From a phage, in the NCBI GenBank assembly GCA_028030915.1, contig GCA_028030915.1_4867.1: DNA of 64,000 nucleotides. One strand, given 5' to 3'. Under the pieces are notes generated by a model, which was not told the DNA's origin, did no database searches, and saw only the letters and a program-made list of their open reading frames with translations. The position numbers and the translations under genes are program-made. Shown one piece after another: positions 1,335-30,743 of this stretch. Within the stretch, counting starts at the first letter, position 1. Each line of letters starts with the position of its first letter.

Positions 1335-1928
1335 TTAGACTTGCAGTAGTGTCCCCGAGTAAGTAATCGGGTCATTGTAGAACGCTTCACACTGGAGGCA
1401 AATACCATCAATGTTCGGTTCTTCAGTTCGCGACCATATCGCCGCACCACCTTGCAAAATCCATTCTCGACAGTTACGACCATAATCGTCGACAAGCAAA
1501 TTACCTCGCGAGGCGTAAGCTTTCTTCTGCCCTGAACTTTCGGTGACGATGACTTTGTCAGCTGGTACCCCAAAGTGCTTCATGAACCACCGTTGTTTTG
1601 AATCCACAACCAATTGGTGGTCGTAGTGATCTTCTGACCCAGAGGTGAGTATTGCCCAACTGTCGCAAAGTCTATCTACCGTTTCCAGGATTCGCTCTAC
1701 ACCCTCAATTGGTTCGAGTTTGTAAAACAAGTCAGGATCGTTCTGATACATCGAACGAACCAAACTACGACGACGGAGTTCAGGTAATGCGTTAAACTCT
1801 TTAATCGTCATTCCGGGAAAATGTGTGGATAAAACGTATTTACGCCAGCGTGCAAAAACGCCATCGCTATCCAGATAAAACATTTTCTTGTCCTTATTTT
1901 GTTCCCCAACACATGAAACCAACGTCAT
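1335..1928 (-). CDS. HAD-superfamily 5'(3')-deoxyribonucleotidase-like protein
   Basis: ORF track 197 aa; motif YLDSDGV (HAD motif I DxDG) near N-terminus and LVDDY near C-terminus; probable true start at internal Met (about 1883). Confidence 0.55.
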   Translation of the reverse strand: MTLVSCVGEQNKDKKMFYLDSDGVFARWRKYVLSTHFPGMTIKEFNALPELRRRSLVRSMYQNDPDLFYKLEPIEGVERILETVDRLCDSWAILTSGSEDHYDHQLVVDSKQRWFMKHFGVPADKVIVTESSGQKKAYASRGNLLVDDYGRNCREWILQGGAAIWSRTEEPNIDGICLQCEAFYNDPITYSGTLLQV

Positions 1929-1936
1929 GTAAAAAA

Positions 1937-2281
1937 TTACATCTGCTTTATTGCCATATTCGAACGATACGGCTCAGTGAGTAGAAAGTAAGTACGGCGA
2001 TAGTCGATTGTCACTCCAGCCTCTTTAATGTCGCAATAGAGTGCCATGATATCTAGCGACGCGATTCCGGAGATAATGTTATTAACCTTGCGTTTTGTAT
2101 CAAAACGTTCCGATAAGATTTCGGCAAGCACTTCCTTACCAGCCTTTCCTTGGATGGCGTAGATCGCTAACGCTTTCAGTTCTTCCGGCGTCAAACAACG
2201 AAGGGTCGGAGGTATTGCGATGTTAACGACCTTCATGCGTCCCCCTACTGTAGTGGTTTTTAGTTGTGATTTGCAGACCAC
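1937..2281 (-). CDS. hypothetical protein (114 aa)
   Basis: ORF track; gene array context. Confidence 0.5.
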   Translation of the reverse strand: MVCKSQLKTTTVGGRMKVVNIAIPPTLRCLTPEELKALAIYAIQGKAGKEVLAEILSERFDTKRKVNNIISGIASLDIMALYCDIKEAGVTIDYRRTYFLLTEPYRSNMAIKQM

Positions 2282-2291
2282 GAACTAGGCA

Positions 2292-2921
2292 CTACGGTGA
2301 AACGACGTATTCGTTCAGTGCGTTATCAAAAGCAGTACGCGCAGTGGCGACCGCCTCCGAGACCTTAACTTCACCGCGCTCCCAGTTGACGCTGATAATC
2401 AGCCGATAAAACTCGCCGGCTTTCAGCAGTTGACTGGTAGACAGGCGCACATCTTGTCCGAAACTTAAGTGATAGACAAAAACATGACCACCGTTGCGAA
2501 GTTCTGACAATCGCATCTCGCCCAGGTAAATCGGTTTGATATCCCAGTTCGACATGCGGTGTGGTACAATCCATACTTCACCCGCCCGATTCGGTTCCTG
2601 TGTCAGGTTGACCGAAGGCTGCGCTACATCACGTTCATCAAAACCGTAAAGATATAATCGTGTGGGTATTTCGATTGCAGAGAAGTTGTGACGTGCACCC
2701 TTAATCGCTCGCTCTAAATCTACCGAGCAGCAAATCCTGGGCACGGTCTTGTCTTCATCTGGCGCGCACGAAAGTGGGATACGCGGCGAAAACGTCGGTA
2801 TCTTACACTTGCTTAAATGCAGCGGCTGTTCAGTCAGTTTACGTAACGTCAACTTTTTGGCGACGTGCGGCATCTGGCGTTCACACCACCGCTCTAATGA
2901 CGGGTCGACATGTTCTGCCAT
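2292..2921 (-). CDS. hypothetical protein (209 aa)
   Basis: ORF track; gene array context. Confidence 0.55.
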   Translation of the reverse strand: MAEHVDPSLERWCERQMPHVAKKLTLRKLTEQPLHLSKCKIPTFSPRIPLSCAPDEDKTVPRICCSVDLERAIKGARHNFSAIEIPTRLYLYGFDERDVAQPSVNLTQEPNRAGEVWIVPHRMSNWDIKPIYLGEMRLSELRNGGHVFVYHLSFGQDVRLSTSQLLKAGEFYRLIISVNWERGEVKVSEAVATARTAFDNALNEYVVSP

Positions 2922-2924
2922 TTT

Positions 2925-3728
2925 TTACCAGCTCCTTACACCCATGCCCATTACCCGCAGATTGGACACTTTCGGAGCCAGCTGCAGGTATTCCTGCGCG
3001 AGTTGCTGGAGAGCACCACGACGGGACTCAGTGGCAACAGCGCTGGTCGTTGTCGGATTGTACAGAATGTCTTCCAACACTTGACGACTGATAGGGCGGT
3101 CGACGTAAGTGCGAGTAGATTCCTGTGCCACTTTACTACCGCGTTGAATCGCAGAGTATTTGTTACAGATTTGCAGGCCATCTTCAATAACCCAGTCAAA
3201 GGTGACCAGTTTATCGATGCGGCGTACGATAGTCGTACCCAGACGACCTTCACGAACGATAGCACGCAGCGAGAAACACACGTTCTGATGTGGGTTCTCT
3301 AGTGCTTCCGCCAGAAGCGGACCACGTTCACGGTTAGGTTTAATCCAACCCCAAATTTCCATCACCGGCAGACCGTTACACATCTGGTCGGTCGGCTTCA
3401 CTTCTACTTCGCGAATGTGCATACACACGTTACGCGTTTCGATCCATTCGTTACGTTCGATCCACTGGGCTTCGCTCATGCCTTGTTCGTATTGCGGATG
3501 GTCTTCTTCACCGAAGAGATTCCCCGCCAAAACTTTACGCATGAAAACGTTAGAGCGCTCGAAGACATGTTTTGACTCGTTATAGGCGTAGTAAATATTC
3601 TCAGAGTTGAAAATATTCAGTGCACCTAACAGGACGTAGTAATATCCGTCCGCATCTTTCTTTAGCGTTGCCCCTTTATTGACCCCAGCGAGTGCCACGC
3701 AGTTATAACGTAGTGACAAGTTTTCCAT
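2925..3728 (-). CDS. hypothetical protein (267 aa)
   Basis: ORF track; long ORF, tight spacing. Confidence 0.6.
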   Translation of the reverse strand: MENLSLRYNCVALAGVNKGATLKKDADGYYYVLLGALNIFNSENIYYAYNESKHVFERSNVFMRKVLAGNLFGEEDHPQYEQGMSEAQWIERNEWIETRNVCMHIREVEVKPTDQMCNGLPVMEIWGWIKPNRERGPLLAEALENPHQNVCFSLRAIVREGRLGTTIVRRIDKLVTFDWVIEDGLQICNKYSAIQRGSKVAQESTRTYVDRPISRQVLEDILYNPTTTSAVATESRRGALQQLAQEYLQLAPKVSNLRVMGMGVRSW

Positions 3729-25903: not shown

Positions 25904-26200
25904 TTAGATAGCGACAGGCGCAGAGATTTTTTCATGAGACTGATACCCAACGATCTCAAAATCTTCGAATTTATAATCGAAGATAGATTCCGGTTTACGC
26001 TTGATGATCAGTTTCGGTAAAGGTAACGGCTCACGCGTCAGCTGCAGCTTGGCCTGCTCCAGATGATTAGAGTAGAGATGTGTGTCACCGCCCGTCCAAA
26101 TGAAATCACCCGGCACCATGTTAACCTGCTGGGCAACCATGTGCACGAGTAATGCGTAAGACGCGATGTTGAACGGCACGCCGAGGAAAAAATCCGCACT
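25904..26200 (-). CDS. thyA: thymidylate synthase, exon 2 (C-terminal 98 aa)
   Basis: Translation [25 protein letters not shown]...[16 protein letters not shown]...[41 protein letters not shown] matches the conserved ThyA C-terminus; no ATG, so it must be joined to exon 1 by splicing. Confidence 0.8.
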
Positions 26201-27294
26201 CAAAACGTTCAGATGTGGTCGTTAATCACATCCCGCGCCATTACGCGCAGCTGCATGTCGCCATGCAGATCAGACTATATCACCATCTGCGAAACTGCTG
26301 CGCAGATGCTCTCCCATTTCGAGGACACTTGTCCCCTACGAACAATCACGTTCTAGTCGTTGGGCATTTATCTAACCACTGCCATGCGGTGTACTTTGGA
26401 TTTTCACTATTAATTCGCCAAAGCACGACAGAAGGGCTTTTACCAAGTTTCCTTCCTGCGTCAGTGATACTCTCGTACACTACGTCGTCGATTAATACTG
26501 GCCGGATATTAGGCGGTTTGTTACCGAGCTTTTTCTCCGCTATGCGCTTGCGAGTTTCCTCGCTGTGGGTTTTGCCAAAGAACGAATTCTTCTCTCCCAC
26601 ACGCCCTGCGGCATGGAGAGAGATTTTCCTACGATGCTCGTCACTAAACTTCCGCCCCAAATGAGGGCTGTCATTAGTGAGATACCACTCGGTGACTTTA
26701 CGCCTGATTTTCTCACGCGCTTCGTCCGAATGTGTTTTACCAAACATCCCATTCATTTTACCAATCCTGCCGTAAACCTTTTTACGTTCAGATGGCGACA
26801 TCGAGTCATATCGTTCGCGAAGCGTTGCTGTTATTTTCGCGATTATTTCATCTCGTCTTGGATGGTTGGTAATACAGTCGTAATAATTCTCAATGTTGAC
26901 GAAAGATTGATCTAAAGCAATCTGTTCTTGTTCTCTCGCACGTGCTTCTGCTTTAGAGGCACAACGAATTAACGTAGGATTGCCATCGAATACAAATCCT
27001 TCATCCCATGCTTTTTGCAGGAACCAGTTATGGTGCTTACCTTGACGCAACTCTTTCAGGTGGCGTTTTAGCCGCTTTTTGAATTGCGTGGTTTCACCAA
27101 TGTATCGACGCTTCTCATCACCTTTTACAAAGGTGAGAATGTACAATATTGCCATGATGTTGTCCTCTTAAATCAGATTAAAAGGTACACCTAGCAATGG
27201 TTAGAATTTAGCAACGGGTTCTCTCCGTAGAGTGCTTCCCGTTTTAGGGAGTGTTTTTCGACTAGGGTCGCCCCTAGAAGGCGCAGCTTAGTTT
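26201..27294 (-). mobile_element. group I intron (T4 td-like) interrupting thymidylate synthase, carrying a homing endonuclease gene
   Basis: 1094 nt between ThyA exons; exon 1 ends with U (cag cgt), intron ends with G (gttttg), and joining restores ...[17 protein letters not shown]. The 5' part contains aaacgggaagcactctacggagagaacccgttgctaaatt, very close to the T4 td intron core; the 3' part contains gatatagtc (P7-like). Confidence 0.8.
26346..27155 (-). CDS. GIY-YIG homing endonuclease (I-TevI-like), intron-encoded
   Basis: 269 aa; N-terminus ILYILTF...RYIGETTQFKKRLKRHLKELRQGKHH aligns with I-TevI GIYQI...VYVGSAKDFEKRWKRHFKDLEKGCH; C-terminal repeated NUMOD-like motifs (MNGMFGKTHSDEAREKI, NSFFGKTHSEETRKRI); SD aagagga before ATG 27155. 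Confidence 0.85.
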   Translation of the reverse strand: MAILYILTFVKGDEKRRYIGETTQFKKRLKRHLKELRQGKHHNWFLQKAWDEGFVFDGNPTLIRCASKAEARAREQEQIALDQSFVNIENYYDCITNHPRRDEIIAKITATLRERYDSMSPSERKKVYGRIGKMNGMFGKTHSDEAREKIRRKVTEWYLTNDSPHLGRKFSDEHRRKISLHAAGRVGEKNSFFGKTHSEETRKRIAEKKLGNKPPNIRPVLIDDVVYESITDAGRKLGKSPSVVLWRINSENPKYTAWQWLDKCPTTRT

Positions 27295-28035
27295 ACGCTG
27301 ATAGAGCTGACATGAAAGAATGCGGCGAGGTATTTCAAGTGCGTCCATCTCAACGTGGAACACTGCGTCGTCTGCAACAGCTTCATTACTAAAGCGGGAA
27401 TCGTTAAATTGATCTGGAAGGTTCTTTTCAAACCAATCAAGACGCTCGTCGATAGACAGCTCACGAGTGTAGAACTGAAAGAACGCATGACACGGCGCTA
27501 ACGCCATTTGATCCAACTCACCCACATTCCATGCGCTGACAATAATACGGCGACTGTCAGGATCGTTACGCAGTTGGTCAATCACCTTAGAGATTTGGTC
27601 GTGTAGTTTCAGAAGTACACGCGCATCGAACATTTGTGAACCGTCGTCCGCGTCGCCATAATCCACGTATCCTGCATCTTGCAGTTTCTCGAGTAAAGCT
27701 GCATTTTTCTTAGGCACCAGTTTCACATCTTTCCAACGTCTCCATTGTGCACCATAGATTTCACCTAGGTCACCGTTCTCATCTTGCCACTCACGCCAGA
27801 TTGTGACCCCGTTATCTTCCAGATATTTGGTGTTGGTATCGCCACTAAGGAACCACAGCAGTTCGTGAATAATAGAACGCAGGTGGAGTTTTTTAGTCGT
27901 GACTAACGGGAAACCTTTGCGCAAATCAAAACGCATTTGGCGACCAAAGACGGAGAGCGTCCCTGTCCCAGTACGATCGCCCTTAACATGACCCTCGTCC
28001 AGAATGTTCTGCATCATCTCAAGATACTGTTTCAC
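27295..28035 (-). CDS. thyA: thymidylate synthase, exon 1 (N-terminal 247 aa)
   Basis: GTG start 28035 with aaggaaa SD; [16 protein letters not shown]...DRTGTGT...[24 protein letters not shown]...[31 protein letters not shown]...SCQLYQR matches ThyA; the frame then runs 6 codons into the intron to a stop at 27274. Confidence 0.85.
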
Positions 28036-29807: not shown

Positions 29808-30743
29808 TTACTTCGGCTGCCAATAACAGTTTTCTTTATTAAAGACTTTTTCTCCATCCTTAATTTTAAGGGCGAAATTTTTATTTTCTGGCTCGCCCAT
29901 ATCAGCTAGAAAGTTTTCGTACTTAGACCAGCGTTCACAGCATGTATAGCCAGCACCACCTCCACGACGATAAGATTCGTGTTTTGTATTGATGAGTTTG
30001 GTTCTCATTGATTGCCATGCGTTGTACGATACTCGAGATCGGTATCCTTTGCCATAGCCACGTAACTCACGTTCTTTGCGAAGCTCGCAACCACAAGAGG
30101 GCGTTATACGTTGCCGCACCTGCCTCGTTTCCGAGGTTATACGATTTCCACACTCACACAACCACTCGTATGAAACGATACCGATCTTGTTAACTTTTAC
30201 TGCTCTAACTGAGGTTAATTTACCAATCGACTGACCTACAGGTATGTCGCCGGGTGGTGTTTTGCTAAAAAGTACAAAGACTGCTATACCGTTTCGACTT
30301 TCAACAAACCTGACACCGCCTTCGGCTCTCGACAGTGGATAGCGCTGCTGCCATTTTTCGATCATCTCGTTTAAATCTTTGATATTACGATAATTTTTTA
30401 ACTCATCATCAGTAAAGGAGTTTACATTATCGTAATATAACGTAAGCCAGTGGCCATTACGCCGATTGTAAGACTGTAAAGATCTGCCCGCCCAACGGCA
30501 GTTTTCCGGTGTATAATCTAACTTACTGTCGATGCGGTCAAGCGTCGTACCTTGTGGTCGAACACCCATATCTTCAAGAAAATTAGAGTAGGACTTTAAC
30601 CAGCGATCGCAGATCTTAATACCCCTTCCGCCGTAGTAAGGGTAGTTGTGATTTTTCTTATTTAGACAACGATTTAGCATTTGCCTATAACTACTGTAAG
30701 TGCGCAAATCTCTAGCCATTGCTATTTCCCATGGTGCAAACAA
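29808..30743 (-). CDS. free-standing HNH-like homing endonuclease with two tandem copies of the domain
   Basis: 311 aa; YYGGRGIKICDRW..F..DMG.RP....LDRID....Y.PENCRWA is a phage HNH-endonuclease signature; a second copy AGYTCCERW..YENFLADMGEP...NCYW sits in the C-terminal half; flanked by hairpin terminators at 29751-29786 and 30745-30776. Confidence 0.6.
   Translation of the reverse strand: MFAPWEIAMARDLRTYSSYRQMLNRCLNKKNHNYPYYGGRGIKICDRWLKSYSNFLEDMGVRPQGTTLDRIDSKLDYTPENCRWAGRSLQSYNRRNGHWLTLYYDNVNSFTDDELKNYRNIKDLNEMIEKWQQRYPLSRAEGGVRFVESRNGIAVFVLFSKTPPGDIPVGQSIGKLTSVRAVKVNKIGIVSYEWLCECGNRITSETRQVRQRITPSCGCELRKERELRGYGKGYRSRVSYNAWQSMRTKLINTKHESYRRGGGAGYTCCERWSKYENFLADMGEPENKNFALKIKDGEKVFNKENCYWQPK

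Follow-up and report, generated by a model that had tools for sequence, protein, structure and literature searches.

A td-like group I intron with a GIY-YIG endonuclease gene divides thyA in an SPN3US-like Salmonella jumbo phage

We analysed a stretch of phage DNA of 64,000 nucleotides (GenBank assembly GCA_028030915.1, contig GCA_028030915.1_4867.1), hereafter the window, in which the thymidylate synthase gene thyA is divided in two by 1094 nt of inserted sequence. The insert is very probably a mobile, self-splicing group I intron of IA2 type, similar to the td intron of phage T4, and a recent arrival in thyA of a nucleus-forming Salmonella jumbo phage of the SPN3US-like kind. This conclusion is carried by the anatomy of the gene, an insertion exact to the base, a conserved and covarying RNA structure, intact open reading frames (ORFs) and the distribution of related introns. 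A preliminary description, made from the letters of the DNA alone, had already read the locus as thyA split by a td-like intron with an I-TevI-like endonuclease gene.

Results

The split gene and its host phage

The window belongs to an SPN3US-like Salmonella jumbo phage (Seoulvirus), as its match to Seoulvirus shows; the jumbo phage host guessed in the preliminary description was right. Over its whole 64 kb it is colinear with phage SPLA1a at 98-99% identity, with 2 insertions only, the thyA intron and a ~1-kb gene at 29808-30743. SPN3US itself is on the list of phages shown by experiment to form a nucleus (PMC13282480). The parts of the locus are as follows.

27295..28035, minus strand: thyA exon 1, 247 codons; GTG start after AAGGA; ends …UAU CAG CGU, its Arg corresponding to E. 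coli R166; Pfam PF00303 positions 1-155, E 4e-68.
26201..27294, minus strand: group I intron, 1094 nt, IA2-like with a td-like core; recognised by the exact gap against SPLA1a, covariation and a partial RF00028 match.
25904..26200, minus strand: thyA exon 2, 98 codons plus stop; starts AGU GCG GAU (Ser-Ala-Asp); Pfam PF00303 positions 169-266, E 2e-39; aligns with E. coli ThyA 167-264.
26346..27155, minus strand: homing endonuclease ORF, 269 aa, inside the P6 loop; recognised by Pfam, PDB matches and invariant catalytic residues.

The coordinates and lengths first proposed for the split hold, with Pfam recognising both exons. Exon 1 ends in U at the 5' junction (…CAGCGU/AAAC; slashes mark the insertion point here and below) and the intron ends in G at the 3' junction (…GUUUUG/AGU), as group I introns do. 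The predicted exon-exon join in the ligated thyA RNA reads …UAUCAGCGU-AGUGCGGAU. The preliminary description gave exon 2 no start codon of its own. No Shine-Dalgarno sequence lies upstream of exon 2, but the last 3 bases of the intron form an in-frame TTG directly before it. Because of this TTG, pipelines call a separate coding sequence (CDS) of 99 aa there, and ORF callers report a 271-aa ORF and a TTG-initiated 99-aa ORF at the split gene.

Joining the exons restores the frame and gives a 345-aa ORF that differs from the ThyA of SPLA1a by one residue. Against solved structures, the product aligns with residues 1-264 of E. coli ThyA (E 4e-126), continuously across the junction and without interruption through the active-site region (E. 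coli residues 159-264, including R166, S167, D169 and N177). Since the LSCQLYQR/ stretch aligns without a break over the junction, the intron is placed between Arg166 and Ser167. The alignment is full-length and contains catalytic Cys146, Arg166, Asp169, Asn177, His207 and Tyr209 of the ThyA family (PF00303; E. coli numbering). Two insertions, at residues 103-145 and 192-239, are phage-specific.

The N-terminus, VKQYLEMMQ, lines up with residue 1 of E. coli ThyA. Its GTG codon at 28035 (window 28017-28035, with an AAGGA Shine-Dalgarno sequence) lies six codons upstream of the start annotated in SPLA1a and gives the conserved MKQYLE N-terminus found in E. coli ThyA. The deposited thyA annotations of SPLA1a (OR413578.1, 208608), SPN3US and SaP7 begin at an internal ATG.

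An empty site in close relatives

The thyA region matches 42 phage records (mostly Seoulvirus, with a few others), and the intron is covered by none. Their coverage of the 2601-nt query reaches 58% at most, and in the best records this equals the query minus 1094 nt. In every deposited Seoulvirus examined, thyA is uninterrupted. When the window is aligned with SPLA1a, the flanks are 99.4% identical and one gap, of 1094 nt exactly, separates them. The window reads …CTCTATCAGCGT, intron, AGTGCGGAT…, where SPLA1a reads …CTCTATCAACGC/AGTGCGGAT…; across the insertion point, the intron-less target of SPLA1a and SPN3US is CTCTATCAACGC/AGTGCGGATTTTTTCCTCGGCGTGCCGTTCAAC. Both junctions are followed by an A, so that the DNA alone would let the gap move by 1 nt. 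The boundaries given above, which are those of the preliminary description, were chosen because they agree with what group I introns require, U·G at the 5' splice site and a G as last base. A 929-nt extra sequence near thyA in phage SPLA3 was considered as another intron and rejected, being a free-standing gene upstream of thyA.

Within ~90 nt of the junction, the exons differ from SPLA1a by 2 synonymous changes only, at -4 and -1 (CAACGC to CAGCGT); beyond these, the flanks first differ 93 nt downstream and over 500 nt upstream. The two changed bases are exactly those that make the 4-bp P1 and its obligatory U. Exon 1 ends in CAGCGT in all intron-containing alleles examined (the window, L003, L005, L007, L010, L013 and the divergent L018, L019 and L021), while intron-less Seoulvirus alleles carry CAACGC (SPLA1a, SPN3US, Proteus phage 7, SPFM19) or CAGCGC (SaP7). 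Co-conversion of a short tract, selection for splicing, or the two combined would account for this pattern.

A covarying group I core

The elements of the proposed ribozyme are listed below.

27281..27298, minus strand: P1/P10 region; exon GCGU (27298-27295) with guide GCGC (27284-27281) and U·G at the splice site; guide GCU (27287-27285) with exon 2 AGU (26200-26198) forms P10.
27194..27277, minus strand: 5' core half; P2 27277-27262 (GCGA loop); P3 5' strand 27251-27247; P4 27243-27238 with 27218-27213; P5 27232-27223 (UACG loop); J4/6 GCUAAAU; P6 5' strand 27205-27194.
26201..26382, minus strand: 3' core half; P6 3' strand 26382-26371; P7 26360-26354 with 26277-26272; P7.1 26353-26340; P7.2 26336-26321; P3 3' strand 26315-26311; P8 26308-26284; J8/7 GUGAUA; P9 26268-26251; P9.1 26250-26233; P9.2 26232-26212; terminal G 26201.

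With GCGU/GCGC and GCU/AGU pairing, the guide is continuous over the ligated junction. The U at the end of the 5' exon pairs with a guide G, and this U·G is invariant in 10 out of 10 aligned introns.

That alignment (A2) comprises ORF-deleted mini-introns from the window, its near relatives L005, L007 and L010, phage Joad, the divergent thyA introns L018, L019 and L021, the T4-type td intron and an intron of a Nitrincola phage. It was built by structural element, N-padded and hand-fitted around the proposed structure, and it contains 79 pairs in 14 helices (P1, P2, P3, P4, P5, P6, P7, P7.1, P7.2, P8, P9, P9.1, P9.2 and P10). MAFFT moved one Nitrincola helix by one column, at the cost of one mismatch cell. 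Pairing holds in 99.3% of 766 cells, and both sides have changed in 53 of the 79 pairs. None of 500 shuffles reached the observed values, and partners slid by 1-3 columns were at most 45% paired. Compensatory changes occur in the long-range P3, in P6, which spans the ORF, and in P7 (GACUA/UAGUC to GACCA/UGGUC in Joad and L019), so that P3-P9 with the P3/P7 pseudoknot are covered. An independent minimum free energy fold of the ORF-deleted window intron recovered 10 helices (P2, P3, P4, P5, P6, P7.1, P7.2, P9, P9.1 and P9.2; z = -5.55). The foldable core and the alignments of the joined product and of the ORF, all proposed as checks in the preliminary description, thus came out in its favour.

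The td-like IA2 class is assigned because P7.1/P7.2 and P9.1/P9.2 are present; compensatory changes affect 4/4 pairs of P7.1 and 4/6 of P7.2, and P9.1 and P9.2 likewise. At the gathering threshold, Rfam found no match in the whole window. In permissive mode the only match was a partial one to RF00028 within the thyA intron (26251-26478, the 3' half; E 8.5e-5), with P8, J8/7-P7 and P9 correctly placed. Two short motifs named in the preliminary description are present, aaacgggaag…cccgttgctaaatt at 27245-27205 and gatatagtc at 26281-26273. Its statement that the core is nearly identical to that of T4 td was too strong, as the two cores are 59% identical.

The Nitrincola intron is an observation of its own. 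In phage 1M3-16 (L016, KJ534580.1, ~1225-1473), the large terminase gene is interrupted within its Walker A motif (GRGFG/KT) by an unannotated, ORF-less group I intron of 249 nt (Rfam 64 bits), and the record annotates orf3 and orf4 separately.

The endonuclease ORF and a putative control hairpin

The 269-aa ORF matches three Pfam families above their curated cut-offs: GIY-YIG PF01541 (26.9 bits, cut-off 22.6), NUMOD3 PF07460 (60.3) and I-TevI_DNA-bd PF20987 (34.1). The GIY-YIG catalytic domain occupies ~residues 1-90, followed by a DNA-binding part with 2-3 NUMOD3 repeats at ~132-211 and an I-TevI-type helix-turn-helix at 207-258. Both I-TevI domains are matched in the PDB, by 1i3j (E 5e-11, residues 183-252) and, weakly, by 1mk0 (E 2e-3, N-terminus). 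An alignment of 13 homologues, the most distant at 34% identity, shows no variation at Y5, Y18, G20, R28, H32, E75 and N87, which correspond to the GIY-YIG catalytic set.

The ORF is thus intact and related to I-TevI, as first described, but it is nearer to the enzymes of bacterial thyA introns. It is 27% identical to T4-type I-TevI (E 4e-27) and 40% identical to the enzyme of a Gottfriedia thyA intron (L022, E 2e-58). In the alignment to T4-type I-TevI, the zinc finger and any CxxC motif are absent from the 269-aa ORF, and the zinc-finger segment of I-TevI falls opposite a gap and the NUMOD3 region. Lacking both the linker zinc finger and the td site (FLG/LPFN), it does not qualify as an I-TevI orthologue.

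The final 12 codons of the ORF (…WQWLDKCPTTRT) coincide with the P6 3' strand, J6/7, P7 and the first part of P7.1. The C-terminus, AWQWLDKCPTTRT (26346-26382), is therefore read from the ribozyme core, so that RNA structure constrains the protein tail; a homologue that has otherwise diverged to 46% identity retains this tail. Upstream of the ORF lies a predicted hairpin.

27164..27185, minus strand: hairpin CCUUUUAA/UUAAGAGG, predicted to bury the Shine-Dalgarno sequence AAGAGG of the endonuclease ORF; fold -11.9 kcal/mol, z -2.6.

Hairpins that correspond to this one, though their sequences differ, are predicted for the T4-type td intron as well as for Joad, L018 and L019. A hairpin that hides the Shine-Dalgarno sequence is documented for the translational control of I-TevI.

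Distribution and mosaic relatives

Introns with the same site and layout were found in the Erwinia phages Joad and RisingSun, in L005-L013 and L018-L021, and in the bacterial L022, L023, L025, L026, L028, L029, L031 and L032. In a scan of species-representative genomes, Gottfriedia, Bacillus sp. FJAT-25509, Deinococcus and Clostridium proved to have thyA divided at this boundary too, with td-like introns and related endonucleases in the P6 loop. The protein database held no identical endonuclease; the nearest were 90%, 82% and 80% identical and lay on short contigs, all with split thyA. A 223-kb contig of a Salmonella enterica assembly (GCA_021097485.1; L013, 2139-4240) carries the same thyA intron with an endonuclease 47% identical and a ribozyme core nearly the same; there, the gene caller missed both thyA exons.

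Two NCBI E. coli assemblies (L007, L008) and a Logan run (L009) contain a Seoulvirus-type exon flank joined to an intron core 97% identical to that of the window. We dropped the reading of these contigs as an intron in E. coli's own thyA, since the exons are of Seoulvirus type and the intron was not matched in complete E. coli genomes or in PLSDB plasmids. In IMG/VR, an exact 27-mer from the intron core gave no match, and a looser splice-site/guide pattern gave 21 contigs. By tblastn, 5 of these (235-254 kb) are thyA cases; the other 16 are not thyA and look like chance matches.

Further observations concern the make-up of these introns and their genes. On IMG/VR contigs of 237 and 240 kb, the thyA introns L105 (1435-1805) and L094 occupy the site of the window intron and share its first 51 nt and last 162 nt at 97-98% identity, with an entire P4-P6 domain unlike that of the window. 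L105 is 371 nt long, has no ORF and scores 58.5 bits in Rfam, above the gathering score; L094 is 849 nt long, with an unrelated ORF bearing the YGG.G..VC.RW motif of the free-standing window gene described below. As P1-P3 and P7-P9.2 are shared while P4-P6 and the ORF differ, ribozyme halves and ORFs look mosaic. In L018, an ENA metagenome contig of 4.2 kb, thyA is split at the same site and adjoins a PAS/HisKA/HATPase/response-regulator hybrid kinase gene, and the insertions specific to phage ThyA are absent; the contig is probably bacterial chromosomal DNA and not phage DNA. In L024 (Deinococcus caeni, 1654-3241) and L027 (a Methylophilaceae metagenome-assembled genome), a related GIY-YIG gene stands free, directly downstream of an uninterrupted thyA.

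The second insertion

The other insertion relative to SPLA1a, at 29808-30743 on the minus strand, is a free-standing gene for 311 aa located 1.8 kb upstream of thyA. Its product contains a duplicated Y..YGGRGI.(I/V)C.RW…F..DMG motif and matches PHROG 8790 ('restriction endonuclease') and HNH-endonuclease PHROGs; no Pfam family was matched. The gene is 41% identical to the one directly upstream of thyA in SPLA3. We think that it is probably a mobile free-standing homing endonuclease gene.

Discussion

How the element would act

We propose that the transcribed intron folds with exon 1 GCGU paired to the guide GCGC, placing a U·G at the 5' splice site, which would be attacked by an exogenous G bound in P7. 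The guide could then align exon 2 AGU through P10, and the terminal G 26201 would be used in exon ligation to yield the mRNA for the 345-aa ThyA. During co-infection with an intron-less relative, and by analogy with I-BmoI and I-TevI, the NUMOD3 repeats and helix-turn-helix of the endonuclease would hold it to thyA on the downstream side of the insertion site, and it may cut in or close to the CAACG motif immediately before the site. In repair off the intron-containing genome, the intron and a short stretch of exon would be copied in. The hairpin over the ribosome-binding site of the endonuclease probably restrains its translation, as in T4 td.

Several points weigh against a mobile self-splicing intron. 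Splicing, endonuclease activity, the cleavage site and homing are all steps that we infer. P1 has only 4 bp, and P10 has 3 bp including one G·U. The first motif of the nuclease is ILY, not GIY. The pair counts of A2 lean towards the proposed structure, because the alignment was built by hand around it. Efficient td splicing in T4 depends on translating ribosomes (PMC3984707), and nucleus-forming phages keep transcription apart from ribosomes (PMC13282480); thus, efficient splicing is not to be taken for granted in such a phage. Finally, the RF00028 match, at 28.2 bits, falls under the gathering score of 50. Such a shortfall is expected, because the ORF-bearing P6 loop of 811 nt parts the two halves of the core. 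An authentic T4-type td intron (L004, 1016 nt) likewise fails, at 40.2 bits, and ORF-less relatives at the same thyA site pass (L105 at 58.5 bits and L089 at 84.6), as does the Nitrincola intron.

Some of the same features could be read as signs of decay. Homing elements often degenerate after fixation, and the ILY motif, the short P1 and a GIY-YIG score barely over the Pfam cut-off would suit a relic, either impaired in splicing (with thyA a pseudogene and host ThyA compensating) or splicing but immobile. We consider this improbable, as both exons and the 269-aa ORF are intact, every core helix is preserved, and the GIY-YIG catalytic residues are all conserved among the 13 homologues. Moreover, the element is polymorphic within its lineage and therefore recent rather than old.

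It is still less probable that thyA is genuinely split, with ThyA polypeptides of 271 and 99 aa translated separately around a free-standing endonuclease gene. This is what the ORF callers return, and the GenBank record of Joad, with RisingSun annotated likewise, lists two 'putative thymidylate synthase' CDSs and an endonuclease. However, the TTG start of the second polypeptide consists of the last three bases of the intron and has no Shine-Dalgarno sequence, and the break, at R166/S167, falls inside the most conserved strand of the active site. The 284 nt flanking the endonuclease ORF form a covarying group I core, which a split gene gives no reason to expect there, and close relatives have thyA uninterrupted. 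As for an assembly or chimera artefact, the lack of the intron from every deposited Seoulvirus genome would suit it, but we give it next to no credence: the insertion is exact to the base, sits in a canonical splice context with matching exon changes, and recurs in three different samples (L007-L009) with the same exon flank joined to a nearly identical core.

Significance

The thyA intron, apparently functional and mobile, is of a well-known selfish kind. It is newly seen in Seoulvirus, and close homologues are already in public records. Current understanding is unchanged by it; a textbook system is extended to a new host lineage. In practice, thyA should be annotated here as one joined CDS with an intron and a homing endonuclease gene, not as two fragments, and likewise in Joad, RisingSun, L013 and several metagenomic contigs. 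The window phage and SPLA1a are a natural pair with and without the intron, usable to study homing, marker exclusion and endonuclease-mediated competition in nucleus-forming phages. The same pair could reveal whether a td-type intron splices where ribosomes are kept from the site of transcription. The endonuclease adds one more natural variant to those known of the I-TevI/I-BmoI scaffold, which is used in genome-editing fusions.

It is tempting to speculate that thyA/td introns switch sites by re-inserting where their endonuclease cuts, and then swap ribozyme and ORF modules. The idea comes from the position of the window intron, within the CAACG(C) codons where I-TevI cuts td, and from the mosaic make-up of jumbo-phage thyA introns. 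In this scenario the endonuclease would need to enter the phage nucleus and could then serve as an interference weapon against intron-less Seoulvirus, and the intron would need to splice without the help of ribosomes. We regard the whole as rather unlikely.

Comparison with known systems

The window intron shares its host gene family, thymidylate synthase, with T4 td. Both have the IA2 layout with P7.1/P7.2 and P9.1/P9.2, and J4/6 (GCUAAAU) and J8/7-P7 (GAUAUAGUC) match, while the helices differ by compensatory changes. In both, the P6 loop contains the ORF, whose 3' end runs into P6'/P7, a hairpin covers the endonuclease Shine-Dalgarno sequence, and the enzyme combines a GIY-YIG domain with a homologous C-terminal helix-turn-helix. 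The identity of 59% between the cores comes from the structure-based alignment; BLAST aligned only ~170 nt of the 3' part, at 71-73%. The window intron is also longer (1094 nt versus 1016 nt for T4-type td), and in its enzyme extra NUMOD3 repeats replace the zinc finger of I-TevI.

The two introns differ in insertion site as well, so that td-like describes the ribozyme and not the position. The T4 td intron follows YQRSVDVFLG/LPFN, and the window intron lies 21 nt (7 codons) upstream, at YQR/SADFFLG, which is the site of the I-BmoI intron. The randomised substrate of I-BmoI, GANNNNG(-2)N9C(+9)ATGGCCTTGGGAAATCCCTTCAATGTATTC (PMC3664794), translates from +1 as x-x-D-M-A-L-G-N-P-F-N-V-F and aligns with the window ThyA. 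From this alignment we place the Bacillus mojavensis thyA intron at the same codon boundary, after an Arg codon (…CGT/), a position derived from oligonucleotide numbering. In the introns of Gottfriedia, Bacillus sp. FJAT-25509, Deinococcus and Clostridium, insertion after the same Arg codon is seen directly. I-BmoI has 266 aa and 3 NUMOD3 repeats (PMC5009752, PMC3664794, PMC2853131). Compared by its published description, it resembles the window enzyme in size and in having GIY-YIG, NUMOD3 and helix-turn-helix parts without a zinc finger; the window element is thus I-BmoI-like, with the Arg/Ser site of I-BmoI taken from that numbering. The I-BmoI host is a Firmicute chromosome, whereas ours is a Gram-negative jumbo phage. 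The position of the I-BmoI ORF within its intron also differs from that of I-TevI (PMC5009752), and in this respect the window ORF, in the P6 loop, is as in td and unlike I-BmoI.

I-TevI cuts CA^AC^G upstream of its binding site, and I-BmoI requires only a G at -2 (PMC5009752). The intron-less Seoulvirus target, CAACGC/AGT, therefore has both the optimal I-TevI motif and G at -2 directly before the insertion site. Position -2 is a U where the intron meets exon 2 (UUUUG/AGT), so that G-2 is present in the intron-less target and missing from the junction, in agreement with the I-BmoI discrimination rule. By analogy, the window enzyme would act like I-BmoI, with its contacts in exon 2 and its cut 2-5 nt before the insertion site.

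Among phages, the Erwinia phages vB_EamM_RisingSun and Joad (Risingsunvirus) have an intron of the same family at the same site, with a core 79% and an endonuclease 49% identical. They belong to another genus, with divergent exons, and GenBank annotates two thyA fragments and an endonuclease in them, not an intron. For a role as a weapon, the gp210 intron of phage PhiPA3 is the precedent: its endonuclease gains entry to the phage nucleus and incapacitates a related phage infecting the same cell (Birkholz et al. 2024, PMC11620839). Like the window intron, it is an endonuclease-bearing group I intron of a nucleus-forming jumbo phage, and the gene that it interrupts is essential. The two differ in that the PhiPA3 enzyme is of the HNH type, its intron interrupts an RNA polymerase gene and its host is Pseudomonas, whereas the window phage carries a GIY-YIG enzyme in thyA.

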